Part shown: in pieces, positions 1,107 through 36,958 of the stretch
How positions within the stretch are numbered: the stretch's first letter is position 1
Layout of the letters: every line of letters starts with the position of its first letter
IMG/VR virus record: IMGVR_UViG_3300018080_000003
Location: 32,001 to 96,000 of that record
DNA: 64,000 nt
From: a virus
Strand: one strand, 5' to 3'
Made by a program: the position numbers and the translations under genes
The notes under the pieces: generated by a model
Seen by the model: only the letters and a program-made list of their open reading frames with translations
What the model was told of the DNA's origin: nothing
Database searches by the model: none

Positions 1107-3356
1107 GTGTCCCGCACGAAAGCTCTGACCCGACCCATCACTCGCAAGCAAGCGAGGTCGTACAACCGAACCGTCCCAAACGGTCGCGGTGTGACGGCAC
1201 TTGCTGAGGTGAACGGGAAAGGCGCTTACAAGCGGCGCTACCAGGCCACTCGCCGGCTCCTGAAGAACGGCAGCGGGAGTGACCAGATGTACACAGCGGC
1301 CCAAAAGCGCGCGATGAAGAAGATGAGCCCGGCTCAGCGCGCATCTTTCAAGAAGATGCTCAAGCGCGCGCCCTCGATCGCAACGCTTGAAAAGAAGCGG
1401 AAGGCCTCGGCGAAGCGCAAGGCCGCTCCCCAGCGGATGAAGTCGAACGGTCGACGAAAGTCGACGACCACGCGCTCAAAGATGACGCCGAACCGGCGCA
1501 AGACGCGCGCTGGGTCCACGGCTCCTCGGAAGTCGGATTTTATCGAGGCGCAGATTTCTCGTGGCCGCACCAAGAAGCAGGCCGAGTCTTCCTGGAAGCT
1601 CGCGCATGGCCGCCACTACAGCAAGACGGCCGCGAAGGGTGCTGCCAAGCGCAAGCGCCGTCGCGTCTACGGCAAGGGCAAGTACAAGGCTGTGAAGGCC
1701 CGGATTGGTCCCAAGAGCCGTTTCACCTACAAATACACCTCCAAGAGCCGGCGCAGCGGCAAGGAGTCCCTGCGGGACATTCCGGACCATGCGCTCCTCG
1801 GGTTCAAGACCCGCAAGGCCTATCTGGAGGTCGTCCGCGACATCGGCGAGTGGGGCCTCCCCCCCAAGCGCGCTCGGCGGGCGAAGGCGCTGGAGAAGCG
1901 CCTTGATCGTCTCGCAGCTCGAAGAGAGCGTGCTGCCGAGAGAGCCGCGAAGCGCATCAGGGCGGGTCGCGGCATGTTCACACCGAACGATGGGAGCAGC
2001 GCGCTCTCGTACGAGGAGTTCGAAGACATGAAGATGCGTCGAAACATCAGAAAGAAGTCGACCAAGAAGAAGGCGACTCGCAAGAAGACGACCGCGAAGC
2101 GGACTTCGTCGGCGAAGCGTCGTGCCGCGGCCAAGAAGGCTGCCGCGACCCGGAAGCGCAACGCGGCGAAGCGGAGCGCTGCGGCCAAGAAGGCGGCTCG
2201 GACCCGGAAGCGGAAGGCGACTGCCAAGAAGCGCACCACCAAGCGCACCACCAAGCGCACGACCAAGCGTCGCACCACGCGTCGCGTACGTCGGACTCGT
2301 GTCGGGCCGCGCAGCGCAGCGATGCGTCGTCGCAAGGGCAGCGTGAGCGTGAGCTACGCGGCCAACAAGCCGAAGCGTCGGAAGAAGGCCGCCAAGAAGC
2401 GCACGTACAAGAAGACCATCACGGTCGGTCGTCGTGGGCACAAGGTGCGCATTCGGTACCGCGCGAACCGCATGTTCAAGCGCAACGAGGGCTTCGTCAG
2501 CCAGCTGACCAAGAGCCTCAAGCTTGGCGCCGTGGTTCTCGGTGGCTACCTCACGCATCGCGTTTTGACTCGCGTCATCGACGACAACGTGACCAGCAAG
2601 ATCGGAGCGCTCAACGAGGGCACCCTCGGCAAGTACCGCACCCTCATCTCGGGCGCGGCGACTGCGGCCATCGGTATCCCCGCGGCCATCGCTGGTTCGC
2701 GCGCGGCCAAGATGCCCGATATCGCGGCTCCCATCGCAGGCGGCATGGCTGCCAGCCTCATTCAGTCGCTCATCGTGACCGTCCTGGGCGAGACCGCTCC
2801 TGAGTACGCCGGCTACTTCAGCAACTACGCGAACGCGGGTGGCACGGCCACTCCCGGCGGGGTTCTCGGCAGCTACTACACCCTTCCCCAGGCGGGCATG
2901 GGTTCGTACTACGAGTTCCAGCCCCATCAGATCATGCCGGCTGCCGGCATGGGCCAGCTCACCCAGGCTGCTGCGGGCATGGGCCAGCTCACTCAGGCTG
3001 CTGCGGGCATGGGCTCGCCGATGCTCACCCAGGCTGCTGCGGGCATGGGACAAGCGATGCTGACCCAGGCCGCTGCGGGCACCGGTGAGTACGTGGCTTA
3101 CGCCGCGAACGGCATTGGCGAGTACGAGGAGACTTCGGTTTCCGCGTCTCCCATGATGGTGGACGAGGGCATTCACCCGAACCTGCACAGCGCGGAGCAG
3201 GCTCTCACCGTGGCCGAGGCCGCGGCGGGCGTCGGCGCTGCCGACATCCCCCTCCAGTCGACCGTGGAGCCCACCGTCATCGCTGATCCGATCAGCGATG
3301 CGCCCAGTGGCTCGCGTGCCGGCGTCTTCCAAGGCGGCGACGGCATCTTTGCCTGA
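1107..3356 (+). CDS. Basic histone H1/protamine-like core protein with membrane segments and C-terminal AGMG repeats (possible polyprotein)
   Basis: GGAGGT SD 9 nt before GTG 1107. About 470 aa K/R-rich (AAKKAA, KRTT repeats), then about three hydrophobic helices, then LTQAAAGMG repeats. Confidence 0.8.
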   Translation: MSRTKALTRPITRKQARSYNRTVPNGRGVTALAEVNGKGAYKRRYQATRRLLKNGSGSDQMYTAAQKRAMKKMSPAQRASFKKMLKRAPSIATLEKKRKASAKRKAAPQRMKSNGRRKSTTTRSKMTPNRRKTRAGSTAPRKSDFIEAQISRGRTKKQAESSWKLAHGRHYSKTAAKGAAKRKRRRVYGKGKYKAVKARIGPKSRFTYKYTSKSRRSGKESLRDIPDHALLGFKTRKAYLEVVRDIGEWGLPPKRARRAKALEKRLDRLAARRERAAERAAKRIRAGRGMFTPNDGSSALSYEEFEDMKMRRNIRKKSTKKKATRKKTTAKRTSSAKRRAAAKKAAATRKRNAAKRSAAAKKAARTRKRKATAKKRTTKRTTKRTTKRRTTRRVRRTRVGPRSAAMRRRKGSVSVSYAANKPKRRKKAAKKRTYKKTITVGRRGHKVRIRYRANRMFKRNEGFVSQLTKSLKLGAVVLGGYLTHRVLTRVIDDNVTSKIGALNEGTLGKYRTLISGAATAAIGIPAAIAGSRAAKMPDIAAPIAGGMAASLIQSLIVTVLGETAPEYAGYFSNYANAGGTATPGGVLGSYYTLPQAGMGSYYEFQPHQIMPAAGMGQLTQAAAGMGQLTQAAAGMGSPMLTQAAAGMGQAMLTQAAAGTGEYVAYAANGIGEYEETSVSASPMMVDEGIHPNLHSAEQALTVAEAAAGVGAADIPLQSTVEPTVIADPISDAPSGSRAGVFQGGDGIFA
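2945..3080 (+). repeat. Tandem coding repeat LTQAAAG(M/T)G x4
   Basis: ctcacccaggctgctgcgggcatggg unit repeated with variation. Confidence 0.9.
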
Positions 3357-3364
3357 GCCCCACC

Positions 3365-3388
3365 GGGGCAGCCTTTCGGGGCTGCCCC
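3365..3388 (+). other. Stable UUCG-loop hairpin downstream of core gene
   Basis: ggggcagcct-ttcg-gggctgcccc, no U tract. Confidence 0.6.
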
Positions 3389-3512
3389 ATCGTCCAACCC
3401 AACAGATTCCACGGCTGAATTGGTCAGCCGTCGAAACATCAACCACAGAACTGCGGACCGAAGAGGAACCAGGCCTCTATAATCATGGAAGTCCGCTAAG
3501 GTATTGAGAAAA

Positions 3513-4268
3513 ATGGCCAAGTTGACCAACGTCCGTGAGCGTGTACATCAGCCCTTCCGGGACTCGCTCATCCGCACCTCCGGCTACAGCGCCGGCTCGC
3601 TCGACGACCGCACCGACCTGTTCACCCAGGCCGGCAAGTCCGACGGTGAGACCAACCTCAAGCAGGGCAGCGTGCTGCCCAGCGACCAGTCGATGGTCGT
3701 CCTCGCGCTTCGCGCCTTCCTCTGGTTCCGCGCTCCGGTCGCCCGTTCGGCCGCGACGCTCGGCGCCAGCACTGGCGTGAACGGTGACTACTTCATCACC
3801 GCTGGCAACGAGGCCGCCGCCGTGAACCTGCTCAACGGCAGCGTTCCCGGCGACTACCACGACGTGCACCGCCTCTACTGGCAGGCCTCGGAGCAGCTGC
3901 TCTGGAGCTTCGGTGCTGGAGACAAGTTCTCCCTCACCAGCATGCCGTCCAGCTACTTCCCCTGGGGTGGTGGTCTGAGCGGCGACGTGGGCGGCGCGAC
4001 CGACCTCGTGCACTGGAACAACGGCACCCCCGACCAGGCTGGCATCCTCCGCCTGGCCCGTGCCGTGCTCATCCCCCCGCGCCAGAACATCCGTACCGCG
4101 GCCACGATCGTCCGTCTCCCCGACGGCGGCAACGGTTCGGTTCCTTTCGGCGTCAACCAGGGCTCGCGCAACATGCTGAGCCTCCAGGACAACCTGAACG
4201 CGGTCGACCTTGTCAACAAGGTCATCGCCTTCTCGTTCGACGGCCTCTTCAGCCGCGACGTCCAGTGA
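3513..4268 (+). CDS. Putative major capsid protein (single jelly-roll inferred)
   Basis: 251 aa, beta-rich, strongly biased codons, own intergenic region and terminator. QPFRDSL..LF..TNL..G.LP pattern and terminal FSFDG strand. Confidence 0.55.
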   Translation: MAKLTNVRERVHQPFRDSLIRTSGYSAGSLDDRTDLFTQAGKSDGETNLKQGSVLPSDQSMVVLALRAFLWFRAPVARSAATLGASTGVNGDYFITAGNEAAAVNLLNGSVPGDYHDVHRLYWQASEQLLWSFGAGDKFSLTSMPSSYFPWGGGLSGDVGGATDLVHWNNGTPDQAGILRLARAVLIPPRQNIRTAATIVRLPDGGNGSVPFGVNQGSRNMLSLQDNLNAVDLVNKVIAFSFDGLFSRDVQ

Positions 4269-4304
4269 AAACCGGCGGCCTACAGAAGGTCGCCCGGTGA
4301 TTTG

Positions 4305-4345
4305 AGGGCCGGCTCAGCGCGGGGCTGGGTCGGCCCTTTCTTCTT
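4305..4345 (+). terminator. Intrinsic terminator after putative MCP
   Basis: agggccggctcagc..gctgggtcggccct stem followed by ttcttct. Confidence 0.6.
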
Positions 4346-4407: not shown

Positions 4408-5550
4408 ATGGATCCTCGAATCAAAGCAATTCAGCAGCAGGCCTACGAGCAGGGGCTCCTTCAGGGGCAGCAGCAGGCTCGACTGAACGACATGGGTCTT
4501 CAGCAGGCTGCGACCGAGCTTCGCAAGGAGTTCGACGCCAAGATGAACCGGATGGCAGGTGGCCTCCGGAAGCAGATGACGGATCACAGCGCCTCGGTGC
4601 ACGAGAAGCTGGGTCAGATCCAAGCTGCAGCTGACAGCATCTCCATCACCGGCGGCGGAGAGGTCGGCTACAACATGCGGGATGAGGGCAACCTGGTTCG
4701 CCCCGGAAACACCCGCATCGAAGACATTCCAGGTCGGCGTGTTCCCTACGTCTACTCGGTGGACATCTTCATCGAAAACAACACCACGAGCGTTCGTGAG
4801 GCGAGCTTGACGATCAGTCAGGAGGGCCCGTTCGTCGCGGTGAAGCGGATGGCTATCTTTCAGAGTGCCTACGAGTTCCAAGCGACGGACCCAGCTTCGG
4901 GTAACTTGGCTCGCTTCGCAGGCCGTTCGTACGGCCGGTACCGTCCGATTCACTCGGCCTGGGACCTTTTGGATGCGCAAAGCAACGCCGTGACGGACAG
5001 CAACGGTTGGTGGGTTCAGCAGAAGGCTGAAGCGGCTTCAGCTGGCGTGGGCAACCCGGTTGCAACGGCTGCGCTGAGCCTTCCGAGCAACAGCAGCAGC
5101 TTCCGCACGATGGAGTTCGATGGTCGCATCGAGGTCATCAACGCGGGCAGCAGCTACCCGCGCCAGAACAAGGAGATCCCTTCGGCGTTCTGGAGCAGCT
5201 CGATCAACTCTCCTTGGGACCTCGGTGCCCTGGACTTCTTCGAGCGTGGCGAGGTTGTCACCTTCAAGGTGAATCCGACGCACGTGAACAATCCGCCCGC
5301 GGGGAACATCCAGAGCGACTGCGTTCTTCCGAATACCTTCAACGGTGGCGATGGCTGGCCCTTCTTGGAAGGCCAGTACGACCTTCACGAAGGCATCTGC
5401 ACCCCTGAGGGCGCGACCATCGGCGAGTTGGCCGCTCCTCAGCGTGTGAACGTGGTCGCAACGGACCCCATCCAGCGCCTTCCGGATGGTATCCTCACGT
5501 TGGCCTTCGAGGGCTATCGGATCATCCAGCCCATCGGTCCGGCCGCCTGA
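4408..5550 (+). CDS. Putative capsid/penton-like protein with N-terminal coiled coil
   Basis: AAAGGAG SD. Helical Q-rich N-terminus then a beta-rich domain ending LAFEGY. Confidence 0.5.
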   Translation: MDPRIKAIQQQAYEQGLLQGQQQARLNDMGLQQAATELRKEFDAKMNRMAGGLRKQMTDHSASVHEKLGQIQAAADSISITGGGEVGYNMRDEGNLVRPGNTRIEDIPGRRVPYVYSVDIFIENNTTSVREASLTISQEGPFVAVKRMAIFQSAYEFQATDPASGNLARFAGRSYGRYRPIHSAWDLLDAQSNAVTDSNGWWVQQKAEAASAGVGNPVATAALSLPSNSSSFRTMEFDGRIEVINAGSSYPRQNKEIPSAFWSSSINSPWDLGALDFFERGEVVTFKVNPTHVNNPPAGNIQSDCVLPNTFNGGDGWPFLEGQYDLHEGICTPEGATIGELAAPQRVNVVATDPIQRLPDGILTLAFEGYRIIQPIGPAA

Positions 5551-5560: not shown

Positions 5561-6460
5561 ATGGCGCATCGACGCAGAAAAAAGTCGCCCAATCTCGGTA
5601 CTGTGCCGGGTCAGGTGGTTCCGATCTCAAACGGGGGTCATCAGCTCGTTTCCAAGGGCGCAGCTCAGACCCTTCTGCGTGGTGAGATTGCGCGTGCGCT
5701 GCAGGACAAGGACGACTACCTCAGCACTTTCGAGGGACAGCAGGCTGGTGTTCCAGGAATGGGCTCGGCGCCTGAGGTTCGGCATGAGCCGGCTGGCGGC
5801 GTCTTCACCAAGTTCCTTCACCCGGCTTTCACCATCATGGAGTTCCTCCGGCGCTCGTTGCCGGAGGAGGGCTGGTTCGACCCGGGCGTGAACCCCCGCA
5901 ACCCGATCCAGTTCCAGCTTGGAAGCTTTCAGGTTCCAAGCGGTCTGGCCCTCTGGCTCTACGACTACGAGTACAAAGTTTTCCGTCCTTCTGGGGTAGA
6001 CCCGGGAGACTTCATCCCGGCTGAGGTCGGTCGCTACAGCAATCAGATCGGTTTCGATGTGACGCTGAGCGGTAAGAGAGACGCGCAGCTCAGCATTCAG
6101 CTCGACCCTCAGACGACGAGTCTTTCTCGTCAGGAGTTCGAGCAGCAGGGCAACACGGGTGGTGCAAGCATCTTCGGCAATCCTCCGACGGCATCTAGCG
6201 CGTTTGATCGCGCCACGGCGAACTCTTTCGCTTCGACGGCCGGGCCGGGAACGTCGCTTTTGCCCAACCGTCCGAACAAGTTTGGTCCTCGGGGCGGCCC
6301 GTGGACTCTGGTGGCAGACGAGGGCACGCGTGTCGCGCTCAACGTCGTCATCTTCAACCGTATTCGTTCTCCCTTGGCGGCCGTAGAGGGTCGCTTGGGC
6401 GGGTACTTGATTCAGCGGCAGGTGAGCAGTTCGCTCATCAACCGTGTCCGTCCGCGATGA
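5561..6460 (+). CDS. Putative minor capsid protein (beta-rich)
   Basis: GAGGAG SD. LGSFQVPSG strand pattern, VPGMG motif, terminal RLGGY strand. Confidence 0.5.
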   Translation: MAHRRRKKSPNLGTVPGQVVPISNGGHQLVSKGAAQTLLRGEIARALQDKDDYLSTFEGQQAGVPGMGSAPEVRHEPAGGVFTKFLHPAFTIMEFLRRSLPEEGWFDPGVNPRNPIQFQLGSFQVPSGLALWLYDYEYKVFRPSGVDPGDFIPAEVGRYSNQIGFDVTLSGKRDAQLSIQLDPQTTSLSRQEFEQQGNTGGASIFGNPPTASSAFDRATANSFASTAGPGTSLLPNRPNKFGPRGGPWTLVADEGTRVALNVVIFNRIRSPLAAVEGRLGGYLIQRQVSSSLINRVRPR

Positions 6461-6584: not shown

Positions 6585-7253
6585 ATGTACACCTCTGTAG
6601 GACAGCTATCCGGATACGGACCTTGGGGCCGCAATGTTGCGGAGACCGATGAGGTGTACGTGTGGCGCGGTATGTTTGATGGTGCGCAGATCCTCACGCA
6701 GCAGGACCTGCAGGCCATCGTTGCAAGTGTCGGGAAGAACCAGAGTCTGGACTTCGACATCCGCGGCGTAACGGTCAAGCCTCTGGGTGGCAGGAATAAC
6801 AAGGTTGAGGTGGCCTTCACCACGAAGATCCCTCGTATTTACGCGCTCGACCCCGACTTCATCACGGATAGCGCTTCCAGCATTGCTCGGAAGCTAGAAG
6901 CTGACCTCGCGTCTCGCTTCGGACCGTTCCGTGTCGAGGATCCGAAGTTCCTCGCGATCGATGACGATGAGCCGAAGCATCCCGCCTTGGACTTCTGGCT
7001 GTCGCACGCGACCCTCTGGGATCAGCCTCTCATCGGAGATGCGATCCCCACCCAGGCCTGGGAGAAGTTCCAGGGCATGTACAAAGGATCTGTCGATCAG
7101 GGAATTGCCCTGAAGAAGTGGCAGAACCCCTCCGACCCGAGCTCGGGCAATGGAGACACTGAGAAAGACCATACCATCTTGTGGGCCATCGGCGGCGCAG
7201 CCGTGCTGCTTGGAGGCTTCTACTTGATGCGAAAAGGAGCAGCAAAAAGATGA
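6585..7253 (+). CDS. Tail-anchored membrane protein 1
   Basis: Starts MYTSVGQLSGYG. C-terminal TM plus RKGAAKR, no signal peptide. Confidence 0.8.
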   Translation: MYTSVGQLSGYGPWGRNVAETDEVYVWRGMFDGAQILTQQDLQAIVASVGKNQSLDFDIRGVTVKPLGGRNNKVEVAFTTKIPRIYALDPDFITDSASSIARKLEADLASRFGPFRVEDPKFLAIDDDEPKHPALDFWLSHATLWDQPLIGDAIPTQAWEKFQGMYKGSVDQGIALKKWQNPSDPSSGNGDTEKDHTILWAIGGAAVLLGGFYLMRKGAAKR

Positions 7254-7843
7254 GTTACGGTGGAGTTGGTTCGTACTACACCCTTCCTGGCATGGGTTCG
7301 TACTACACCCTTCCTGGCATGTCCGGGTTTGGCTCGACGGCCGACACCTTCGATGCCGCGGCGGTGTGGGCAGACGTGCAGCTTGGCGGCTCGTGCTACG
7401 GCGCGCAGGGCGTCATCAAGGGCTCGAACGTCGGCGCGTGCAACGCGGCTGGTGGTCGTGCGGCTCGCGCGATCCAAGCGGCGCTCAACGAGATGGGCTA
7501 CGGCCCGCTGGCCGTGACGGGCAAGTGGGACGGCGCGGTCTCGGGCAAGTGGAAGCGTTTCCTCTCGGATCACGGCCTTCAGCCGGGACCGGGCCTCGGT
7601 GTCTCCGAGCAGGGCCTTCTCCTGATGGAGAAGCTCCTGAAGGAAGGCAAGACCCCCGGGCCCAACAAGCCCATCGTCTACGACAAGCAGGGCGACCAGT
7701 ACATCCCGCGTGATGCCGGACCCGGCACCGCGACCGCGGGCATGGGCGCTGGTGGTCTACTCCTCGGCGTTCTCGTCATCGGTGGACTCGGCTACGCGGC
7801 CTACCAGAGCGGCAAGAAGCGGAAGGGTCGACGCGTCCGATGA
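7250..7843 (+). CDS. Tail-anchored membrane protein 2, peptidoglycan-binding-like domain
   Basis: GSYYTLPGM x2 then MSGFG. IQAALNEMGYGPLAVTG resembles PG_binding_1. TM plus KKRKGRR. Confidence 0.75.
   Translation: MSYGGVGSYYTLPGMGSYYTLPGMSGFGSTADTFDAAAVWADVQLGGSCYGAQGVIKGSNVGACNAAGGRAARAIQAALNEMGYGPLAVTGKWDGAVSGKWKRFLSDHGLQPGPGLGVSEQGLLLMEKLLKEGKTPGPNKPIVYDKQGDQYIPRDAGPGTATAGMGAGGLLLGVLVIGGLGYAAYQSGKKRKGRRVR
7268..7321 (+). repeat. 27-bp perfect tandem duplication
   Basis: ggttcgtactacacccttcctggcatg x2. Related sequence at about 2870-2910. Confidence 0.9.
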
Positions 7844-8088
7844 TCGATCCCTCCCAGGTCGACTACGCAGCGGTAGCCAACGTCGCGCAGAACGGGTCGC
7901 CGTTGCTGCTCTCGGCGCTCGGTCGTCTGTACGGCATCGGCCCCCAGGAGCGTCATGCGCTCGGGGCTGACGGCACCGGCGTGCCGACCTGGACGTGGGC
8001 TGCTTTGGCCTTTGTCACTGGGTACGTGGTCGGCGTCAGGGTCTACAAGGCCTACCCTGGCTACGTGCCAAAGATCATCAGCGGGTGA
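7840..8088 (+). CDS. Small membrane protein 3
   Basis: 82 aa, LYGIG motif, C-proximal TM. Confidence 0.75.
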   Translation: MIDPSQVDYAAVANVAQNGSPLLLSALGRLYGIGPQERHALGADGTGVPTWTWAALAFVTGYVVGVRVYKAYPGYVPKIISG

Positions 8089-8092
8089 ATCT

Positions 8093-8341
8093 ATGCACTT
8101 TGGAATCGACACGCCGGCTTCCGGCACATCTGAGATCGCAAGACAAGGACTTCGAGATGGGATTTACACCCTCGGAGAGACCATGTCCGGGCTTGGCCTG
8201 GAGTACCAGGAGTCTGGAGGCAGGTACATGCTTGCGACGACCAAACACTTCGAGGGTGAAAAGACGAAGTCTTTGGTGATTGGCGTTGGAGCTGGTGCTG
8301 CAGCAGCTCTGCTCATGGGTTTCTTTATCTTCCGGAAGTAG
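8093..8341 (+). CDS. Tail-anchored membrane protein 4
   Basis: MSGLG motif. TM plus RK. Confidence 0.75.
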   Translation: MHFGIDTPASGTSEIARQGLRDGIYTLGETMSGLGLEYQESGGRYMLATTKHFEGEKTKSLVIGVGAGAAAALLMGFFIFRK

Positions 8342-8348
8342 GCTCGTC

Positions 8349-8903
8349 ATGTACGCAGGACTCGGCAACATCCAGGTACCGACGCCCATCCCGGGCAACA
8401 TCAACCGCGTCGCGACGGTGCGGGCGACTGGCTACAACTACTGCGGCGACCTTCGCGGGTTGCAGCAGATGTTGGCTGAGCTGGGCTGGTACCAGGGCGC
8501 GGTCGACAACCAGTTCGGTCCTGCGACTCGAAAGGCGGCGGAGGCTGCCGCTCGTGAGTACGGTGTTCCTTTCACCAAGGGTGGCACCATCAACAACGAT
8601 TTCTGCCAGGCGGTGATGGATGCTTGGAAAGCGCAGAACGCTCCCAATCCCTCCCCCGCTCCGGCACCCAAGCGTCCGTCCTCTTCTTCTCCAGCAGGCC
8701 CGGCCCCCTCACCATCGTCCAAGCCTGCCGCGTCTCCTTCCGGCAAGCCGGCGTCACCCCCTCGTCAGGGCGGTGGTGAGGGGATCACCGGCTGGTGGAG
8801 TAGTCAAGAGAAGAGCACACAGATCGCCATCGGCCTCGGAGCTGTGGGGATTGTCGGACTGGGGGTCTACCTTCTAGCCACCCCCAAGAGACGTCGAGTT
8901 TGA
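8349..8903 (+). CDS. Tail-anchored protein 5 with peptidoglycan-binding domain
   Basis: Starts MYAGLG. LQQMLAELGWYQGAVDNQFGPATRKA fits PG_binding_1. P/S-rich linker, TM plus KRRR. Confidence 0.8.
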   Translation: MYAGLGNIQVPTPIPGNINRVATVRATGYNYCGDLRGLQQMLAELGWYQGAVDNQFGPATRKAAEAAAREYGVPFTKGGTINNDFCQAVMDAWKAQNAPNPSPAPAPKRPSSSSPAGPAPSPSSKPAASPSGKPASPPRQGGGEGITGWWSSQEKSTQIAIGLGAVGIVGLGVYLLATPKRRRV

Positions 8904-8930
8904 TGCCCACCGAGGCATAGGAGAAAAGAA

Positions 8931-9551
8931 ATGTACAGCGGAGTTCCTGCATACACCGAGATTTCGCACTTCCGTGCGCCCTACAAGAACGCTGTGATCT
9001 CTGGCTTCGGCCAGGAGGCCGGCGGGCCGGACCCGGCGGCTGCCTTCCTCATGGAAGACGAGCGCGGATATCGGTTCCTCAAGCCTGAGATGCACGTCTT
9101 GTTCATGAACATGATGGCGGAGGCTTACGGCGCTGAGACCATCACCGGCGACCGCATCAAGATCAGTGCGCTCACCCCTGAGCAGGCTGCTGTGGCCGCG
9201 ATCCCGCGCCCCGCGCCTTGGATCAAGGCGGCGGTGGAGTCTGGCAAGGTCGTCTTCGCGAACCAGGCGCTGGTCTTCGCGGTCCTTGGTGGCACGCAGA
9301 TCCCCAGCGGTGTCGACGAGCTTGGTTCGGCCAAGGTCGGGTCCGAAGCCGCCAAGACTTCCGCCAAGGACTACGGCCTCATCATCGTGGCCGGCGACCC
9401 CGACAAGGACCTCGGTGGGGGGAGCAAGAAAGACAGTGGCGAAGGCTTCCTCGCGAACCTCGGTCCGGCCGGAACGGCAGCCGTCGCGGCTGCGGTGATT
9501 GGCGTGGGGTACGTCGCCCTCAAGGGCGCCAAGAAGCGCAATAAGAAGTGA
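8931..9551 (+). CDS. Tail-anchored membrane protein 6
   Basis: AGGAG SD, ISGFG motif, TM plus KKRNKK. Confidence 0.8.
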   Translation: MYSGVPAYTEISHFRAPYKNAVISGFGQEAGGPDPAAAFLMEDERGYRFLKPEMHVLFMNMMAEAYGAETITGDRIKISALTPEQAAVAAIPRPAPWIKAAVESGKVVFANQALVFAVLGGTQIPSGVDELGSAKVGSEAAKTSAKDYGLIIVAGDPDKDLGGGSKKDSGEGFLANLGPAGTAAVAAAVIGVGYVALKGAKKRNKK

Positions 9552-9555
9552 GCTG

Positions 9556-11680: not shown

Positions 11681-11707
11681 AATCACTCCTTCTGCTAGGA
11701 TTGCCAG

Positions 11708-12286: not shown

Positions 12287-12579
12287 TGATTCGTGGATTT
12301 GGAGCCTTCGGGCAAGAGACCCCTGTCGTTCCTGGCATGCCTGGTGGCATCACCTCCATGGATGAACTTGGCCAGCAGGTCACCTCCGGCCTCGTCGTCG
12401 AGCTTGGGAACAAGCAAGAGGGCAACTACAAGTGCTACGAGCCGACCGAGAAGCAGGCGGCCGAGGGCAAGAAGGCCATGTGCGTGGGCTCTAAGCAGTT
12501 CTACACCATGAGCCACCTCGGAGCGCTTGCCATCGGTGGAGCTGTCGGCTTCGCCATCTGCAAGATGATGAAGAAGTGA
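12283..12579 (+). CDS. Tail-anchored membrane protein 10
   Basis: Starts MMIRGFGAFGQ. TM plus KMMKK. Confidence 0.8.
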   Translation: MMIRGFGAFGQETPVVPGMPGGITSMDELGQQVTSGLVVELGNKQEGNYKCYEPTEKQAAEGKKAMCVGSKQFYTMSHLGALAIGGAVGFAICKMMKK

Positions 12580-12583
12580 TCTG

Positions 12584-12982: not shown

Positions 12983-12987
12983 CAGAC

Positions 12988-13344: not shown

Positions 13345-13345
13345 G

Positions 13346-23769: not shown

Positions 23770-23790
23770 CTCTGAAGGAAGGGGGAAGAG

Positions 23791-27769: not shown

Positions 27770-27780
27770 GGAGGTGAGAG

Positions 27781-29301
27781 ATGGGTAGAGGAACAGTCGG
27801 TTTCAAGGGCCACGGGATCACGCGATCTCTGGAGTTCCCCAACGGGGAACTGGCCCCTGTTGCGCCTCCAGGTCGTGCTCGTCTTCGCTACAACGATGCG
27901 ACAAGTCAGCTTGAGCTGAGCATCTCCGGCGGCGCCTTTGCGCCTGTAGGCACGGGCGGCGCCACTGCGGCGCTGAGTTACGCGGCCTGGGTGGATGAGC
28001 GCTCAGGCAACGATGGCACGGCGGTGGTAGGCAACATCAACCTGCCATTCCTCACGGTCCAGGCTGCGGTGAACGCGGTCATTGCCCTGGGCAACCCAGA
28101 CGCATCGATTCTCATCTTGCCTGGCAATTACCAGGAGGATGTTGTGGTTCCGGCTGCCTTTGCTGACATCCAGATAGGCTTCTCTGGAGTGAGTGGTGCG
28201 AGCAATATTCGCTCGATCACGCTGAACGCTCCGGCGGCTCCTGCGGTCCGGGCTCAGTTCACGCTCAACGAGCTGACGCTGGGCAACCGTGTGGGTGGTG
28301 GGCAGACGGTTGCGCCTCTGGTGATCGTCAACGGTGACGGGGACACGGACGTCTTCGCAACGCAGCTGCAGCTCTTCACTTCGACGCCTAACATCGACTT
28401 GGTTCGAACTGAGAACAACACGGCTTTCGGTTTATTGACGGTCCAATTCAACGGCGGCCAGGCTCTAGCGACACCTGGGTCGGCGAACTCGCGAGCCTTG
28501 TTCTTGGAGGCGGGTACGATTCTGACGAACGATTTTCTCACCTTCTCGCAGACGGCTTCTGCGATTGAGATCGACGGCTTCGTTGCTCTGTTCGACGTGG
28601 GCTCGGTCTATCAGCAGAGCCTGGGCTCGGTGTCGCCTCTCATCACTTGCTCGCTGACGTCCTTCGCGTTCGTCAACCTTTTTGGAACGTCGCTCCAGCT
28701 TCCGACGGCTAACACCGTCATCGACCTGCCTTCTCCAGGCGCGAGCGTGAACCTCAACGGAGGCGTTGTTCAGTCGTTCGTGCATGCCGGCGCGGGTATC
28801 GCGACGCCCGGCACCGCGGCGGTGAACTACATCTCCGACTTGGCGGGCAACCGCCTCTCGGTGTCTGCGCTTTCTGGTTTGGGCCTCCTTCAAGGCGCCG
28901 AGCTGGTGGCCTTCGACTCGACGACGAACGTACTCCCTGCAGGCCTAACGGCCACCGAGGGCATCGATCGTGCCATCCAAGGGGTGAGCGACACGGTGGC
29001 ACGCATCACGGGCGGCGGCGCTGTGGCGGCAGGGTCTGAAGAGATCATCTTGGTGGACGAGCCTGCCCTAGCCACCACCATTCTTCTTCCGCTCCGAAGT
29101 ACGGTCGACGAGGGGAAGAAGTATCGTGTCGTCGATGCGACGCCGGCTGGTGCCGCTGGCATCACAGTGGCAGCTTCGGGCGCTGACACAATCAACGGAG
29201 GCCCTTCGACGGTGGTCACCTCTGGTCAGAACAACTACGTGGAAGTCATGGCGGAAGCTGGCGCGGCCACAAGCTGGGTGATTGTCGGCATTCGGCCCTG
29301 A
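27781..29301 (+). CDS. Spike/fibre protein 2
   Basis: Same adaptor and C-terminal domain as 24875. Confidence 0.75.
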   Translation: MGRGTVGFKGHGITRSLEFPNGELAPVAPPGRARLRYNDATSQLELSISGGAFAPVGTGGATAALSYAAWVDERSGNDGTAVVGNINLPFLTVQAAVNAVIALGNPDASILILPGNYQEDVVVPAAFADIQIGFSGVSGASNIRSITLNAPAAPAVRAQFTLNELTLGNRVGGGQTVAPLVIVNGDGDTDVFATQLQLFTSTPNIDLVRTENNTAFGLLTVQFNGGQALATPGSANSRALFLEAGTILTNDFLTFSQTASAIEIDGFVALFDVGSVYQQSLGSVSPLITCSLTSFAFVNLFGTSLQLPTANTVIDLPSPGASVNLNGGVVQSFVHAGAGIATPGTAAVNYISDLAGNRLSVSALSGLGLLQGAELVAFDSTTNVLPAGLTATEGIDRAIQGVSDTVARITGGGAVAAGSEEIILVDEPALATTILLPLRSTVDEGKKYRVVDATPAGAAGITVAASGADTINGGPSTVVTSGQNNYVEVMAEAGAATSWVIVGIRP

Positions 29302-29309
29302 GGTGATTC

Positions 29310-30797
29310 ATGAGTGATGGCTCTATCGGTTTCAAGGACGTCGGGCGCTGGCGTGCGCTTGAGTTCCCTGACGGACAGAATGCAGAAGTCTCTCCTCTTG
29401 GGCGTGCTCGTGTTCGCTACAACGACGGCAGCGGGGAGCTTGAGGCCAGTCTGGATGGCGGGCCGTACCAGCGTATCGGAGGCCTCACGCAGAACGGTGC
29501 GGGCTGGGTTGACGCTTTTGGCGGGAACGATACGACAGCGGAGTATGGCCGTCTCGATCTCCCCTTTCGAACGGTGCAAGCAGCAGTCGATGCGGCTTAC
29601 GCGACAGGGGGAGACAATCTAACTCTTGTCATTTTTGCAGGGGACTACCCGGAGGATGTCGTCATCCAGCCCCCCCCCGCTCAGCCGACGACCTTGACGT
29701 TGTTTGGTCTCTACCGTAGCGGTGTGAGGGTCCGTTCCGTCACGTTGGACAACCCAAGTGGCGCCCAGACAGCTGACGTCGTGATGTCTTCCCTGTCTCT
29801 TGGCAGCGATGCGGGTGGCCAAACGGTTCCACCCATCACGCTCCAAGCTCCGAACAACGGGACCCTTCGAGCACGCCTCGACAACGTCATCGCGACGAGT
29901 TCCACGCCTGGCATTGACGTTTTTCAGCAGACCAACAACTTTGGCGTTGTTACCTGTGAGGCCAACAACAGCACCCTGACTGCGACGGATGCTGCAACAG
30001 GTTCACGCGCTGCCTTCATCAACTCAGGGGCCCTCGTCGCCAACAACTGCACTCTGAGAGGCTTCTCCGCCAACACCGTATTGGTCGAAGCCGCTGGCAC
30101 TTTCACTATGTCAGGAGGGTTCCTCGACCAGGGTGGCCTCTTTGGTGGTTTCACTACTCTTCAGAGCAATGGCACCGGAGCCGTGGTGCTCACCAACATT
30201 CGCGCGAGCCCAGCTGGGTTTTTCGACGACGTTATTGCCGCTAGCAACTCGCTCGCTAACTTCACTGTTCTGGGACTGCTGGTTATCGACGGTTTTTACT
30301 TCGGGAATGCTTTCATGAGCGGGAATGTGTTCGCGTATTCCTTCCTCGCGAATACGGCTGGCACTCCGATTCCGATCATCACTGCGCTACAGGTACGACT
30401 TCAGCGGGCCGAGCAGGTAGGCGCCTCGGTTGGCACTCTGGGGAACACGACTGTCAACGCTGCGCTTGACAACATCCTCGTCGGTGTCACCAACATCAAC
30501 AATCGCATCAACGGTCCTGCCGTTTTCGCACCTACGACACAGCGAACTTTGCCTTGCAATACGACGGGAGGGGTCGTCACCTTTAACCTTCCGACGATTA
30601 ACGCTTTCCCTCGTGGCAAAACTTTCCGGTTCGTTCATGCTGTGCCTGGAGCGAGCGACATCGTCATCAACTCCTCTGGTGCTGATACGATCGACGGAGG
30701 CGCATCCTTCAACCTACCGGCTGGAGCGAACAACTATGTTGAGATCCAAAGCTAGGTGGGGATCAACAACTGGGTGGTGGTTTCTCGCCGTCCTTGA
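29310..30797 (+). CDS. Spike/fibre protein 3, with in-frame TAG at 30753 (13 codons before the homologous end)
   Basis: NNYVEIQS*VGINNWVVVSRRP aligns with paralogue ends NNYVEVIAEVGAPSAWTIIGIRP. Confidence 0.7.
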
Positions 30798-30805
30798 GGT
30801 AAGAA

Positions 30806-31777
30806 ATGGCAGCAGGTGATGACGGCAGCGCGGGTCCTTGGGGCTTCAAGGGACAGGCTCGAAGGCTCTTCGAGCTTCCGAATTCTGAGGAGGCTCAGGG
30901 CAATCCGAGTGAGACAGCTCCGATTGGGCGTGCTCGGATTGGCTACGACGACTTCCGGAATTGGATCACAGCGTCGATCGGTCTCGACGTCTTCCGTCCG
31001 ATCTTCGAGGACGCGCAGTACATCTACACATTCTTCCGCGAGACGATGGTCGAGAACGGCCAGTTCACTCCGGTGGAGATCGACGCGGGGCTCATCAGTC
31101 AGCCTTTTATCCAGGCATCAGACCTCCCGGTGCCTCCTCCCATGGGACCGACGATGCCTGCGTTTGCGGTTGTGCGCGAGGGTGCAGCCCAGCTTCAGCT
31201 CTACTACTGGGACTTCATCGGTGCGACCGGTTGGATCGGTACGACCTACCCTTGGCTGAGTCCGGTGTTGCCGCCTGAGTTCGTGCTCGACCAAAACACG
31301 GGCTACGGCGCTCCGCTGGGCAACTTCCAGTTCTCTTTCGGCTCTGAGATTCAGATCGCCCAAGCCTGCACGGCAACGGACATCAACGCTCGCGTGAACG
31401 CTGTCGGCGGACCTCATGCCTTCGACGTTCGACTTACGACGACGCCAGGGCCGTCAGCTCCTGCGCTTACGAGCTACACGAACATCATCGTCTCTGGCAC
31501 GCACACCTTCACGACGACGGGTTGGGAGACCATCGCGACGATCTCTCAGCCGCTGGCCGTGAACGACTGGATCCTCACGAGCATCTATGGCTCACCAAAC
31601 TCTGCGTTCTTCAACATCCCTGCAGAGCGCTCTGCTGGCAATTTGAACGAGAACTTTGGCGTGCTGAATGCCAGCCTCTATGCCTTTGTGGGAGCAGCTC
31701 CCCCGGGAAGCATCGTCATTCCTACGACGCGTGACATCAACAACTGCTACGGCCTTTGCACTCCGGAGCTTGGGTAA
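30806..31777 (+). CDS. Spike/fibre protein 4 (diverged adaptor)
   Basis: WGFKG..FELP..GRARIGYD. Confidence 0.7.
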   Translation: MAAGDDGSAGPWGFKGQARRLFELPNSEEAQGNPSETAPIGRARIGYDDFRNWITASIGLDVFRPIFEDAQYIYTFFRETMVENGQFTPVEIDAGLISQPFIQASDLPVPPPMGPTMPAFAVVREGAAQLQLYYWDFIGATGWIGTTYPWLSPVLPPEFVLDQNTGYGAPLGNFQFSFGSEIQIAQACTATDINARVNAVGGPHAFDVRLTTTPGPSAPALTSYTNIIVSGTHTFTTTGWETIATISQPLAVNDWILTSIYGSPNSAFFNIPAERSAGNLNENFGVLNASLYAFVGAAPPGSIVIPTTRDINNCYGLCTPELG

Positions 31778-32100
31778 TGTCTAACGAGAAAACCCTTCTT
31801 CCGCCTCTGATCACGGAAGACCGCGCCCGCCGCGAGCGCACCCTCGATGCGGTTCAAGGTCAGACGATTCATTCCATTGTGGAGACGAGCCCCGCGACAG
31901 TCGCCAAGGCCCACTTTGCCTATCAGGCCTTTCTGGTCGACAAGGTCGAGCAAGCTTGGCTCTACACTCAGACGAACTCCAATCTGCTGTCTAAGGCCGT
32001 AGCCGTGGACACTTCTACGCCTTGGCTCGACAACGTGACCTCGAACGGTCTGACAATTCGGGCGAACATCATCGCCCAGCTGGCTTCACCGGTACCGTAG
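31777..32100 (+). CDS. Hypothetical protein
   Basis: TAATG coupling to spike 4. Confidence 0.65.
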   Translation: MSNEKTLLPPLITEDRARRERTLDAVQGQTIHSIVETSPATVAKAHFAYQAFLVDKVEQAWLYTQTNSNLLSKAVAVDTSTPWLDNVTSNGLTIRANIIAQLASPVP

Positions 32101-32607
32101 TTGGAGACCTTCGAGCCGGCCCATGACCATGGTGTCGGACTTGTTTCGGATCTCCCACTTGAAGCTCTCGTTATTGAGCGCTCGCAGCCTACGACGCTGC
32201 ACCTGACGGATGGCATCCTCTGGGCCGCAGTTGGTGAGTATGCGGATGGCGCAGGCGTTGATGAGCCCGCTCCGGTTCCATCCGGCCATGCAGGTGACCA
32301 GCACGGGCTCAACAGCGGCTCGCTCTGCGACCCACAGCGCCGCGACGAGGACCGCATCCCACTCCTGTTGACTGAGGGGGTCACCATCGTCTTCGAGCGG
32401 CACGCGCAGCACGCGCATCCCCACGTAGTTGCTCTGGCTGGGCTGGTGCTCCTTGGCGGAGAGCACGAGGCTCTTGAAGCCGGCGCGCTGAAGCATCTCA
32501 CCGGGAGGAGCCATCCCGCCCTGCCAGACGTTGGGGATGACCTCATCGGCGTCGATCGGTTCAGGCTCGTTGAGGATGTACCGTTCGAGGTCGTCGATAG
32601 CTTTCAT
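32086..32607 (-). CDS. Dual-specificity/tyrosine phosphatase family protein
   Basis: VLVTCMAGWNRSG CX5R loop and upstream PLEDD acid loop. Confidence 0.9.
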   Translation of the reverse strand: MKAIDDLERYILNEPEPIDADEVIPNVWQGGMAPPGEMLQRAGFKSLVLSAKEHQPSQSNYVGMRVLRVPLEDDGDPLSQQEWDAVLVAALWVAERAAVEPVLVTCMAGWNRSGLINACAIRILTNCGPEDAIRQVQRRRLRALNNESFKWEIRNKSDTMVMGRLEGLQLRYR

Positions 32608-33296
32608 CGTCTGAGCATTCTGACAGCAAAGAAGCCGAGAACGCCAGCGGCAATTGCTGGAGCGACGCGTGCGTTGAGCGAAGCCTTCGGGTCGTACTGG
32701 GGATGACCGGGAATGATGGGAGGACCGTTCGAGCCGGGCCCTGGGGGCAGCGGCCCGTTGGGAACGTCAGGCACGAGGATGTGCGCCTTGCCGTAGGCGC
32801 GCGTCACGTGGGGTCGTACCGACCCTGTGGCGTCTTCGACGCTGATGACGCCGTCGCCGCCCTTGTCGAGTCGCTTGTTTAAACGGTAGGCATCAGAGGG
32901 GGCACTGTAGACGGTAGCAGAGGGGGAGGAGCCGATGAAGCTTGGAGCGAAGACGGCCATGTAGTGGTCTTCGAGGCTGGTTCGGCGGACTTTCTTCTGG
33001 CGCTGGACGTACTCGAAGTACTTTTCCACAAGGGGGAGCTGCTCTTCAGCGCTCATCTTCATCAGATCGTCGTTGGTGACTCCGAGCATATCCCGAGCGG
33101 TCTTGCAGAACTGGATGAGACCTGTGCATTTGCTGCTTGGGTTCTGTGCCTTTGGATCAATTCCGCTTTCGAAGCGCATCACGGCTGCGAGGTAGCTGGG
33201 GTCTAGGCCCTGGCGATCGCTCAGCAGGACAAGCTCCCTTCGGAAGGCGGGGGTCTGCCTGTCAAGTCTTTCGATGGCAAGAAGTTCGCGCGACAT
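32604..33296 (-). CDS. Membrane-anchored lytic transglycosylase (SLT-like)
   Basis: AAVMRFESG..P.AQN..GLIQF, Pro linker, C-terminal TM plus RR. Confidence 0.85.
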   Translation of the reverse strand: MSRELLAIERLDRQTPAFRRELVLLSDRQGLDPSYLAAVMRFESGIDPKAQNPSSKCTGLIQFCKTARDMLGVTNDDLMKMSAEEQLPLVEKYFEYVQRQKKVRRTSLEDHYMAVFAPSFIGSSPSATVYSAPSDAYRLNKRLDKGGDGVISVEDATGSVRPHVTRAYGKAHILVPDVPNGPLPPGPGSNGPPIIPGHPQYDPKASLNARVAPAIAAGVLGFFAVRMLRR

Positions 33297-33795: not shown

Positions 33796-34726
33796 GGCAA
33801 ACATGTCGGTCGTAGGTTTCATCACGCGCTCGGGCGCAAGCAACTTCTTCAGTCAGGCAGAGGGTAACGTTGGAGACACAGGGGGCAACCGTTTCATCGC
33901 ACGCAAGCCAGATGGCACGTCGCTGGGCGGCTACAACAGCGCTGGTGCAGCGCTGAATGCTTTCCGTCGTCTGCATGGCGGTAACCGAGTGTTTCAGATC
34001 CGTCGCCGCGACTTGCCGAGCCGGGTGGAGCACTATGAGGTGATCAGCGATCCGCCGAGCCCGAATGAGATCTTCGAAGAGAACCTCGTTCTTTGGACGG
34101 AACCGGTCTTTCGCCCGAGTGTGACGCTCAGTGGCACGGCGAATCAGATCGCTCGGGTGCGGAGCCGTACGGCCAAGCCTACGCCGCAACTGTTTCAGGC
34201 CACGGCTGGCAACCAGCCTTTTTTTCTTCAGAACGACGATCAGTTCAACGAGAACAACGTCTTCGACACGGACGATCCCACTCAGCGTTTCTTCGACGTC
34301 TCGAACCTGATTCTGACGCCGCCCTTCGCCATTTTCCTCTGCTGCAACCATACGTCGGCGGTCCCGGTCGACTTCACGGCTTCGGCTGTCAGCTTCGCGT
34401 CTGGCGGTGGCTACATCGGGAACGTCGGCGGTGTTTCAGCGGTTTGGGGCGTGAACAATGGGGCGGTCATCGCGAGCCCTCAGTTCATTTCTACGACCAC
34501 GCCTGACGTCGTGGTGTACGAGCAGAGCACGACGGGTGCGGCGCTCTACGTGAACGGTGTTTTGGCAGGAGTTAACGGTGCGGTGCCTGGCGCGGGCACG
34601 CTGCAGATCGGAACGAACCCTGACCCTTGGCGCGGGAAGTTCGCGAGCATCTTCGCGGTCGACTTTATCCCCGAGCCGAGCCAGCGAGCGCTTGCGACGC
34701 GGTACCTTTCGGAGGCGTTCCAGTGA
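33788..34726 (+). CDS. Putative virion protein with LamG/concanavalin-like domain
   Basis: Beta-rich, LYVNG motif, terminal YL helix. Confidence 0.6.
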   Translation: MNEANMSVVGFITRSGASNFFSQAEGNVGDTGGNRFIARKPDGTSLGGYNSAGAALNAFRRLHGGNRVFQIRRRDLPSRVEHYEVISDPPSPNEIFEENLVLWTEPVFRPSVTLSGTANQIARVRSRTAKPTPQLFQATAGNQPFFLQNDDQFNENNVFDTDDPTQRFFDVSNLILTPPFAIFLCCNHTSAVPVDFTASAVSFASGGGYIGNVGGVSAVWGVNNGAVIASPQFISTTTPDVVVYEQSTTGAALYVNGVLAGVNGAVPGAGTLQIGTNPDPWRGKFASIFAVDFIPEPSQRALATRYLSEAFQ

Positions 34727-35625
34727 GCGGGAAGCTCATCGATGTCGTTCAGCGGGTGAAGGAAGGGACGGCTTACTGGGACTGGGAGACAGTCATCAGT
34801 GAGCATCAGGGGCACAAGCTCTACATCCGGGTGTTCGCGGATGCGATGAAGTTTGACGACGTGCCTCCGTTGACTTGGAACTACCAGACGTTCCGGGAGT
34901 ACGACGAGTCAGGCGAAGAGGTCAAGCGGACGTACAACGGTGTGCGTCTTCCTGCGAGCGCGCAGGAGCTGCAGCAGATCGCTGACTTGACTTCATGCAT
35001 GCTGCTGACGCCGAAGGTCGTCGACCTGATCTGGCTTCAGGCGAAGGTGAAGTTTGATCCGGTCATCAACTCGGGGCCATCGCAGTATCAGATCGTGGCA
35101 GAAATGCCCATCGTCGGCAGAATGCCCTACCGTGGGACGACTCTGATTGGCGTCCATGAGCTGATTCAAGAGAAGATCGACACGACGAGTGACGGCACGG
35201 GTCTGGTCGCTTCGGTCGGCAAATACTGGGTGCTAACGAACGGCCTCGGGAACACTTCGATGCTTCGCTTCGGCGATGAGACCGCGTGCAACTACGGCTG
35301 GTGCTCGTCGAGCGCTTCTGGTCCTGGCGTGACGCCTGGGGTCCAGTGTTGGCAGCGCCCTGGCTACGCGCATGACATCCGGCACTGGGACCCGTCTCAG
35401 GTCATTCGTCTGATGTTCCGCACGGCTCGCCTGGTTCGTGCAGATGGGACGGAGGAGTACGTCGACCTCGGCGACATCGCGCAGGACCCCGAGCTGGGTC
35501 CGCTCATTACGCACGAGGGCGAGCTTGGGATCTTGCGTCAGCCTGGAGTCGAGGAGCTTCCGGCGATGCAACCGATCCAGCTTCCTCCGGAGACGATCAT
35601 AGCAAACCCTTGGAGGGGGGCGTGA
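34723..35625 (+). CDS. Hypothetical protein, possible cell-wall enzyme
   Basis: GK.WV..NYGW..Q..H...H.D.SQ pattern, directly upstream of endolysin. Confidence 0.6.
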   Translation: MSGKLIDVVQRVKEGTAYWDWETVISEHQGHKLYIRVFADAMKFDDVPPLTWNYQTFREYDESGEEVKRTYNGVRLPASAQELQQIADLTSCMLLTPKVVDLIWLQAKVKFDPVINSGPSQYQIVAEMPIVGRMPYRGTTLIGVHELIQEKIDTTSDGTGLVASVGKYWVLTNGLGNTSMLRFGDETACNYGWCSSSASGPGVTPGVQCWQRPGYAHDIRHWDPSQVIRLMFRTARLVRADGTEEYVDLGDIAQDPELGPLITHEGELGILRQPGVEELPAMQPIQLPPETIIANPWRGA

Positions 35626-36473
35626 GCGAACCTACCCCGACGCTCTGGCTCACGCTCCCTAAAGATGAGGTCTTGAAGCGAGGCGACAAGGGCGCGCTAG
35701 TGCAACGTGCTCAGCTGAGGATGCTGGTGCATGGGATTGACCTGGAGCCCTACGGAGCAGACGGCCACTTCGGCGACAAGACCAAGGCGGGCGTGAAGCT
35801 ATTTCAGCGTCGCGAGAGCATCCCGGTGACTGGTGTGATCGACAACCGCACCTGGGAGGAGCTGATGGACAAGGCAGAGCCAGAGGTTCAGTCGACCATC
35901 GCGGCGTCCGGGTTCGTCTCAAAGCCGAGCTTCAGCCCCCTGGCGAGCAACGATGCGCGCGCGGCTGTTTTTGGGAAATTCCGCTACCGTCCTGCACCCA
36001 TCAAGGGGAATCCTGAGCGGATCATCATGCTCGACAACTGGATGGTCGAGAACACGACGGTGGTAGAGATCCCACAGCTGAAACAGATCCCTGGCGTGAT
36101 GTGGCAGGGGAAGCGTTGGTCGAAGGGGCCGAAGTCGGGAAGGGTTCGCTGTCACAAGCTCATCGCAGAGCAGCTGGTGGGCCTCTGGGCAGCGTGGGAG
36201 CAGGCTGGGCTCATCGATCGGATCTACAGTTGGGATGGTTTGGGCAACCCTCGCTTCATTCGTGGTAGCCGGTCCATTCTGAGCAACCACGCTTGGTACA
36301 CGGCGTTCGACATCAACTACAGATGGAACATGCTAGGCGAGACGCCTGCTGACATTGGCGAGAAAGGATCGGTGAAAGAGCTTGTCCCCATCGCTCATGA
36401 TTTTGGGTTCTACTGGGGCGGCCACTTCCGCCGCAGGGATGGCATGCATTTTGAGGCAGCGAAGGTTCTGTAA
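35622..36473 (+). CDS. Endolysin: PG-binding domain plus M15 peptidase
   Basis: LKRGDKG..ADGHFG.KT..FQ; SNHAW..AFDIN; DGMHFE. Confidence 0.9.
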   Translation: MSEPTPTLWLTLPKDEVLKRGDKGALVQRAQLRMLVHGIDLEPYGADGHFGDKTKAGVKLFQRRESIPVTGVIDNRTWEELMDKAEPEVQSTIAASGFVSKPSFSPLASNDARAAVFGKFRYRPAPIKGNPERIIMLDNWMVENTTVVEIPQLKQIPGVMWQGKRWSKGPKSGRVRCHKLIAEQLVGLWAAWEQAGLIDRIYSWDGLGNPRFIRGSRSILSNHAWYTAFDINYRWNMLGETPADIGEKGSVKELVPIAHDFGFYWGGHFRRRDGMHFEAAKVL

Positions 36474-36700
36474 TGACTCCCGCGACAAAGTACTACTTCA
36501 AGCAAATCTGCACCGAGTGCTGGGGCAGAGGCCGCAAGATGATCTCCACCTGGAACGTTGAAGGTCAAAAGGTCGAAGAGAAAGACCTAGGCGTCTGCCC
36601 TGCCTGCGGAGGCGCCGGTCATCATGGTTATCAGACTTTCGATGCAGGCACTTCTCCCGAGCCCATCTGGCAAGAAGGGACTCACGCTGTTGTAGGATGA
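36473..36700 (+). CDS. Small CxxCxGxG zinc-finger protein
   Basis: CTECWGRG and CPACGGAG. Confidence 0.7.
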   Translation: MTPATKYYFKQICTECWGRGRKMISTWNVEGQKVEEKDLGVCPACGGAGHHGYQTFDAGTSPEPIWQEGTHAVVG

Positions 36701-36703
36701 ACC

Positions 36704-36958
36704 ATGGCCAAGAAGATTACTGCTGAGGAGGTACGCTACATCGCGATCACGGCTGCCATCACGGCCGCCGCGAGCGCCGTTGCGACCTCGATCGTTACTT
36801 TTGCCATCGAGAAGTACTTCGAGCGCAAAGACGAAGAGGAAGCGACGACGGCTGCTCAAGGCATGGGCACGCTGATTGTGAGCCGGGGGGTGCCCGTTGC
36901 GCCTCACCTCAACAACACACTTCAGCGGCCTCGCGCGATTCGCCGTTCGACGCTGTAG
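36704..36958 (+). CDS. Small membrane protein with QGMG motif
   Basis: One TM, AQGMG. Confidence 0.65.
   Translation: MAKKITAEEVRYIAITAAITAAASAVATSIVTFAIEKYFERKDEEEATTAAQGMGTLIVSRGVPVAPHLNNTLQRPRAIRRSTL

Follow-up and report, generated by a model that had tools for sequence, protein, structure and literature searches.

Probable morphogenesis operon of a large tailless, membrane-containing bacterial virus with predicted single-jelly-roll capsid proteins

Large bacterial dsDNA viruses are generally regarded as tailed phages with a terminase motor, and the bacterial membrane-containing viruses that we compared have genomes of 17–44 kb. Prokaryotic double-jelly-roll viruses stay below 20 kb; the Tectiviridae and Corticoviridae, with PRD1 and PM2, combine genomes of this size with double-jelly-roll trimers and a packaging ATPase (PMC8812541). 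Halopanivirales are defined by two capsid proteins together with an FtsK-type packaging ATPase (PMC5332951). In 2025, dsDNA viruses whose capsid proteins have a single jelly roll were transferred from Varidnaviria to Singelaviria (PMC12714852). The phage SSIP-1 is bacterial, circular and tailless with an internal membrane, and standard phage preparations tend to lose particles that contain lipid (PMC6356626). The nearest models for the virus considered here are SPV1 (Portogloboviridae) and the unclassified SSIP-1.

The DNA analysed (the window, 64,000 nucleotides) comprises positions 32001–96000 of the virus record IMGVR_UViG_3300018080_000003, which is 143,727 bases long, has a 123-base terminal repeat and is rated 100% complete. 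Once the repeat is removed, a 266-aa gene spans the junction intact and agrees in length with its homologues in relatives (269–288 aa); the genome is therefore a closed circle of 143.6 kb, and an earlier note, made from the letters of the window, was right to place it above 64 kb. Gene calling gave 224 genes with 92% coding density and a largest gap of at most 623 bases. In the interval 1107–36958 there are 40 called genes, almost all on the plus strand. The note had taken these 35 kb for a structural module; structural genes are indeed present, but enzymes are interspersed among them, namely three glycosyltransferases (one fused to methyltransferases), a DnaJ protein, a Nudix hydrolase, a phosphatase and an endolysin. 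Structural genes also lie beyond the window, at genome positions 412–15528 and about 135–143.7 kb; the block at 412–15528, on the minus strand, encodes nine tail-anchored proteins, an 837-aa coiled-coil protein and a 199-aa Cys-His-Asp enzyme. The large-phage accessory genes listed in the note (tRNA-Thr, MazG-like, NT5C-like and MoxR/vWA) were found as well.

We interpret the interval as the main morphogenesis operon of an uncultured dsDNA bacterial virus with a tailless particle, in which an icosahedral single-jelly-roll shell encloses an internal membrane and DNA coated with protein, on the pattern of SPV1 and SSIP-1, and assign this interpretation a probability of roughly 0.68. Such an architecture has so far been described only in viruses smaller by a factor of three to seven. 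The interpretation draws on two predicted jelly-roll folds, the inventory of membrane proteins, a conserved cassette, and the failure to detect head-tail genes or a packaging ATPase; the assembly steps given further below are those we infer from them.

Five relatives of about 112–182 kb were assembled, two of them closed circles, so that six genomes could be compared. Twenty-two families occur in all six, and BLAST adds the coiled-coil protein. They include a four-gene cassette (the core protein and three beta proteins), several membrane proteins, the Cys-His-Asp enzyme, an HExxH protein, DnaJ, two glycosyltransferases, the phosphatase and a tyrosine-recombinase-like protein of 1,200–1,370 aa. 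Replication genes vary, with a primase-helicase in the present genome and DnaB-like helicases in the others; it is therefore the structural module that defines the lineage.

The cassette begins at 1107..3356 (plus strand) with a 749-aa protein, conserved in all six genomes, whose composition suggests a membrane-anchored, DNA-condensing core protein. Residues 1–459 contain 35% K+R and 5% D+E, carry [MYF]-x-x-N motifs and have a net charge of about +141, in keeping with the basic core protein noted earlier; they are followed by hydrophobic helices near residues 512–556 and an acidic tail with G-M-G repeats. By a rough estimate, about 1,000 copies would neutralise half of the DNA charge.

The three capsid-like beta proteins reported earlier are all real, and follow on the same strand. 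The candidate major capsid protein (3513..4268) and a predicted second capsid protein (4408..5550), the latter with an N-terminal coiled coil (about residues 1–80) ahead of its jelly roll (about 108–375), each give a model with one 8-stranded jelly roll. The third (5561..6460), present in all six genomes and a candidate minor capsid or penton protein, is probably also a jelly roll, judging from its conserved alternating hydrophobic strands. The earlier note had named a fold other than the jelly roll as evidence against its reading; two of the three proteins give jelly-roll models. A strong terminator-like hairpin with a 15-bp stem and a T-rich tail (4304..4338, plus strand; consensus match only) lies directly 3' of the candidate major capsid gene.

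None of the three proteins belongs to a family in Pfam, PHROGs, PDB sequences or cultured phages, and Foldseek against the PDB gave no match at E 0.001 or better. For both modelled proteins, the SPV1 capsid protein VP4 is the best or tied-best structural match; a PDB sequence search returned no SPV1 match. Profile comparisons of the three proteins with each other and with the capsid proteins of SSIP-1 or P23-77 gave nothing significant; a capsid profile against SSIP-1 gp45/gp46 gave a suggestive alignment over 64 columns (E 0.053). ESM Atlas feature matches to the PM2 P2 and PRD1 P3 families scored 0.75–0.79 and serve as leads only.

A packaging ATPase of the FtsK/HerA/A32 kind, for which the earlier note had suggested a search, was not found: the Pox_A32 (PF04665), FtsK (PF01580) and HerA (PF01935) profiles gave no match in this genome. 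The alternative that fares best supposes the same tailless, membrane-lined jelly-roll particle, with DNA pumped into a preformed shell by an unrecognised or host motor. An FtsK-HerA ATPase is found in helvetiaviruses and in most double-jelly-roll viruses (PMC8812541), the 144-kb genome far exceeds the 20 kb of SPV1, in SSIP-1 a structural protein, gp40, carries a Walker A motif, and a HerA-like protein (609 aa) occurs in one relative, G001. Against such a pump, every P-loop protein of the present genome is accounted for: the set consists of a primase-helicase, three helicases, MoxR and a nucleotide kinase. Queries with the P23-77 ATPase and SSIP-1 gp40 brought up no convincing homologue here. 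There is no ATPase among the 22 universal families and none common to the six genomes; the sole family found in five, a DnaB-like helicase, is absent from this one. The genome is, moreover, circular and encodes the conserved, strongly basic core protein, and we regard pumping as unlikely. A Walker-A-like string in the product of the gene at 10236 was rejected as a motor; this is a tail-anchored protein without homologues.

Downstream of the cassette lies an array of genes (6585..15749, plus strand) for about 13 small membrane proteins of the tail-anchored type. Each finishes with a transmembrane segment rich in Gly and Ala, followed by a basic tail; most carry an N-terminal G-[LMFIV]-G, and one has a peptidoglycan-binding domain. 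The conserved DnaJ-domain gene lies inside the array (11708–12286, plus strand). By a strict rule there are 11 tail-anchored proteins in the interval 1107–36958 and 24 in the whole genome. The same C-terminal hydrophobic segment was recognised by eye in four more (7840, 12988, 32604 and the additional plus-strand gene at 23299), and the previous count of at least 15 membrane-anchored proteins thus holds. An internal lipid membrane is probable on the strength of the 24 tail-anchored proteins. The large membrane proteome, with 24–34 such proteins per genome, would also suit a particle whose membrane is outermost, or a pleomorphic one, in which the jelly rolls are decorations or a transient scaffold like poxvirus D13; the Orf virus scaffold and vaccinia D13 are indeed among the fold matches. 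We consider an arrangement of this kind distinctly unlikely, and retain the internal membrane within a jelly-roll shell as the preferred reading.

Two short motifs stand out. G-[LMFIV]-G within the first 60 residues was found in 14 of the 24 tail-anchored proteins vs 26 of 188 soluble ones (p 4e-6), with similar enrichment in all five relatives. In the basic part of ten core-protein homologues, M, Y or F occupies the third position before the Asn in 72 of 147 cases, against 6% expected from composition; similar Asn motifs are seen in SSIP-1 gp40, gp41, gp43 and gp44 and, close to its termini, in the recombinase-like protein. By analogy with adenovirus core maturation, we read both motifs as putative processing or loading signals for the conserved Cys-His-Asp enzyme. 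That this enzyme, possibly with the HExxH protein as a second one, cleaves precursors at both motifs has, in our estimate, a little under an even chance.

Much of the rest of the interval would serve the surface of the particle, entry and lysis. Pfam matches define a modification-enzyme region (17471..24849, plus strand) with two single GT4 glycosyltransferases (17471 and 23791), both of which all six genomes share, and, at 19098, a glycosyltransferase-methyltransferase fusion. The spikes expected from the earlier note correspond to four spike- or fibre-like proteins (24875..31777, plus strand), putative in function, which have in common an N-terminal anchor domain of ~55 aa; this domain recurs at 40905 and outside the window. 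Three of them match a PHROG 'tail protein' over ~60 aa of its length, and the four are not conserved in relatives. On the minus strand, a dual-specificity phosphatase-like protein conserved in the lineage (32086..32607) is adjacent to a lytic transglycosylase (32604..33296), a candidate entry enzyme whose SLT domain (E 8.6e-6) and C-terminal hydrophobic anchor bear out its earlier description as membrane-anchored; in this it resembles PRD1 P7. The product of 33803..34726 (plus strand), lectin/LamG-like by a weak match below the cut-off (Pfam Laminin_G_3, E 0.065), is a possible receptor-binding protein, and 35610..36473 (plus strand) encodes an endolysin with a peptidoglycan-binding domain and an M15 peptidase (Pfam E 1.2e-10 and 4.5e-12). 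The endolysin and two transglycosylases point to a host among walled bacteria. The only GTDB matches are two contigs of 4.6 kb, placed in MAGs from separate phyla (Pseudomonadales and Pirellulales); both are probably mis-binned and were set aside as evidence of the host.

The absence of tailed-phage hallmarks that had been seen in the 35 kb extends to the complete genome, including the terminase, portal and HK97 capsid genes that the note had named as evidence against its reading should they occur elsewhere on the contig. Profiles of terminase (PF03237, PF17289, phrog_2), portal (PF04860) and HK97 capsid (PF05065) gave no true match in this genome or the relatives scanned; the same profiles gave matches in prophage-containing genomes used as positive controls. 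A lone weak terminase-profile match, in G001, was ruled out, the protein being an SF2 helicase. When nearly all proteins above ~80 aa were compared with PHROG and Pfam, no head, portal or sheath appeared among the families listed, and the six-genome comparison gave no conserved HK97-capsid or portal candidate of suitable size. Apart from enzymes (helicases, the primase-helicase, a nuclease, MoxR, glycosyltransferases and an integrase-like protein), the proteins of at least 400 aa are the spikes, the core and coiled-coil proteins and a single tail-anchored one, which leaves none as a plausible terminase, portal or sheath. The genes that define Caudoviricetes thus have no detectable match here, very divergent forms of the HK97 capsid protein or portal being conceivable. 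A tailed phage with head-tail genes diverged beyond recognition and jelly rolls as cement, or a satellite using a helper capsid, is highly improbable and largely refuted by the complete genomes, since the same genes are missing from three independent circular genomes (112–144 kb), the PHROG matches span single shared domains, and a helper-dependent element would need no spikes, endolysin or 24 membrane proteins of its own.

With a tailless, membrane-lined particle as the preferred reading, the comparison with described viruses can be drawn more closely. PRD1 and PM2 resemble this virus in being tailless, in the internal membrane (here deduced from genes) and in the anchored transglycosylase; the modelled proteins, however, have one predicted jelly roll each and no packaging ATPase was found, so the earlier PRD1/PM2/Varidnaviria frame is not supported. 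The predicted folds agree with the single-jelly-roll capsid proteins of Halopanivirales (P23-77, SH1, HCIV-1, HHIV-2; Helvetiavirae, Singelaviria), two of which build heteromeric capsomers in that order, but the genome (143.6 kb against 17 kb in P23-77) is set apart from P23-77 and SH1 because no FtsK/HerA/A32 packaging ATPase was found. They agree also with the VP4-like capsid protein characteristic of Portogloboviridae. SPV1 further resembles this virus in its circular dsDNA, glycosyltransferase and methyltransferase genes and lack of a detected packaging ATPase, and probably in a nucleoprotein core and internal membrane, which are deduced here from gene content. It differs in its archaeal (Sulfolobales) host, 20-kb genome with 45 ORFs and non-lytic life, compared with 143.6 kb, an endolysin and an indicated bacterial host; the primase-helicase, the three beta proteins in a cassette and the large membrane-anchored core protein are further differences.

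The profile of the Cys-His-Asp family matches the SSIP-1 structural protein gp34 (E 3.3e-15). SSIP-1 also has tail-anchored proteins (one with a transglycosylase-like domain), short x-E-N-P/G motifs in gp40, gp41, gp43 and gp44, a coiled-coil gene directly 5' of gp34, and, preceding its pair of capsid genes, a gene for a hydrophobic-hairpin protein. HMM comparison of the coiled-coil and core proteins of the present virus with gp33 and gp44 yielded no significant match, so these parallels are of layout only. In contrast to this lineage (about 111–182 kb), SSIP-1 has a 43.8-kb genome, two capsid proteins of 210 aa that are paralogues of each other and, in gp40, a structural P-loop protein without counterpart here, and its gp34 is membrane-anchored while the Cys-His-Asp enzyme is not. 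With significant homology in one gene, kinship is likely, and proven for that gene only. The virus is placed near SPV1 and SSIP-1 and not near PRD1/PM2 because it is predicted to be single-jelly-roll and is apparently motorless. Each established family considered differs in a defining feature, yet the design is of a known type.

SPV1-like assembly (PMC8459092), in which the shell would close without a motor, is the simplest account of these features. Fixed in the inner membrane of the host by its anchor, the core protein would bind and condense the circular genome through its basic N-terminus, and at least 24 tail-anchored proteins would mark a membrane patch and tie it to the shell. The 3513 protein, aided by those of 4408 and 5561, would assemble around the condensed core, so that no DNA pump would be needed. 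The Cys-His-Asp enzyme encoded outside the window, possibly with the HExxH protein, would then cut precursors at both motifs. Glycosyltransferases would decorate the surface and interchangeable spikes bind the host; the anchored transglycosylase would open peptidoglycan at entry and the endolysin free the progeny. Scaled to the packing density of SPV1, the particle would be very roughly 160 nm in diameter.

The proteins of this virus fall in clusters labelled Uroviricota, and such genomes are therefore probably being counted as tailed phages. In the open literature (subscription journals mostly outside coverage) we found no publication describing the lineage, and the suggestion of an undescribed large lineage is supported in its main elements: a large tailless virus, a widespread lineage, a jelly-roll capsid and a probable internal membrane. 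More tentatively, at rather less than even odds, this would be a widespread motorless lineage of family or order level, with genomes on the scale of jumbo phages (110–180 kb), in which a membrane-anchored, protamine-like polyprotein condenses the DNA, a single-jelly-roll shell of roughly 160 nm closes over it, and a transglutaminase-fold protease matures the particle by way of two short sequence codes; it would form the large bacterial branch of a portoglobovirus-like state that has been proposed as the ancestor of Singelaviria. If our reading is true, the single-jelly-roll membrane design would be extended three- to ninefold in genome size and no pump would be required to package 140 kb; a large family of relatives would be gained for SPV1 and for the orphan SSIP-1, and the proposed portoglobovirus-like origin of Singelaviria would become testable.

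A second structural block, outside the window, occupies the minus strand of the circular genome at positions 412-15528 (L001:412-15528; L001, L002, L004 and L005 are stretches of this genome). It contains nine tail-anchored proteins, an 837-aa coiled-coil protein kept in all relatives, and a Cys-His-Asp enzyme (199 aa, L001:9856-10455) whose homologue in SSIP-1, an unclassified tailless membrane-containing phage, is gp34.

An N-terminal domain of ~55 aa (G-F-K-G ... E-F-P) is common to six proteins of 200-1,107 aa, encoded at window 24875-31777, window 40905-41507 and L004:360-3683, and was not found in any of the five relatives. The shared domain suggests that these proteins form an interchangeable spike set with a single anchor. 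A 266-aa minus-strand gene that crosses the contig junction (genome 143204-143604 joined to the contig start) is present in all six genomes, that is, the virus and its relatives, and adjoins spike-like genes; its product is a candidate vertex protein.

The basic membrane-anchored core protein (window 1107-3356) is called at 717, 721 and 749 aa among near-identical copies of the virus (compared with L068-L070), which may reflect strain-to-strain length variation in its basic repeat region or else differing start calls.

Alongside a primase-helicase, the replication block (L002:6919-16288, genome 22618-31987) encodes helicases of the DinG and SF2 types, an SSB-like protein and a PD-(D/E)XK nuclease, whereas the relatives have DnaB-like helicases instead; no DNA polymerase was among the matches listed in scans of the genome's proteins. 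Phage-encoded two-component genes (L004:7219-9505, genome 119318-121604) comprise a histidine kinase flanked on both sides by receiver-domain proteins. Other genes include a TnpB/IS605 gene (L004:11186-12355), two more tRNA calls beyond the window, one for Arg and one for Ile (genome 99556-99628 and 117082-117161), and, in the early region, a minus-strand gene (window 45691-46809) whose 372-aa product contains G-Q-L-x repeats in tandem.

A 174-aa HEFGH protein (L005:10251-10775, genome 135550-136074, minus strand), found in 6/6 genomes, is a candidate metalloprotease that may act as a second enzyme of maturation. Every genome also encodes a tyrosine-recombinase-like protein of 1,210-1,369 aa; the one here (L004:13689-17357, genome 125788-129456, minus strand) has 1,222 aa, and its catalytic motifs appear intact. 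Close to its ends lie Asn motifs similar to the [MYF]-x-x-N motifs of the core protein, proposed as processing or loading signals, and the protein may serve as a resolvase or integrase loaded into the virion.
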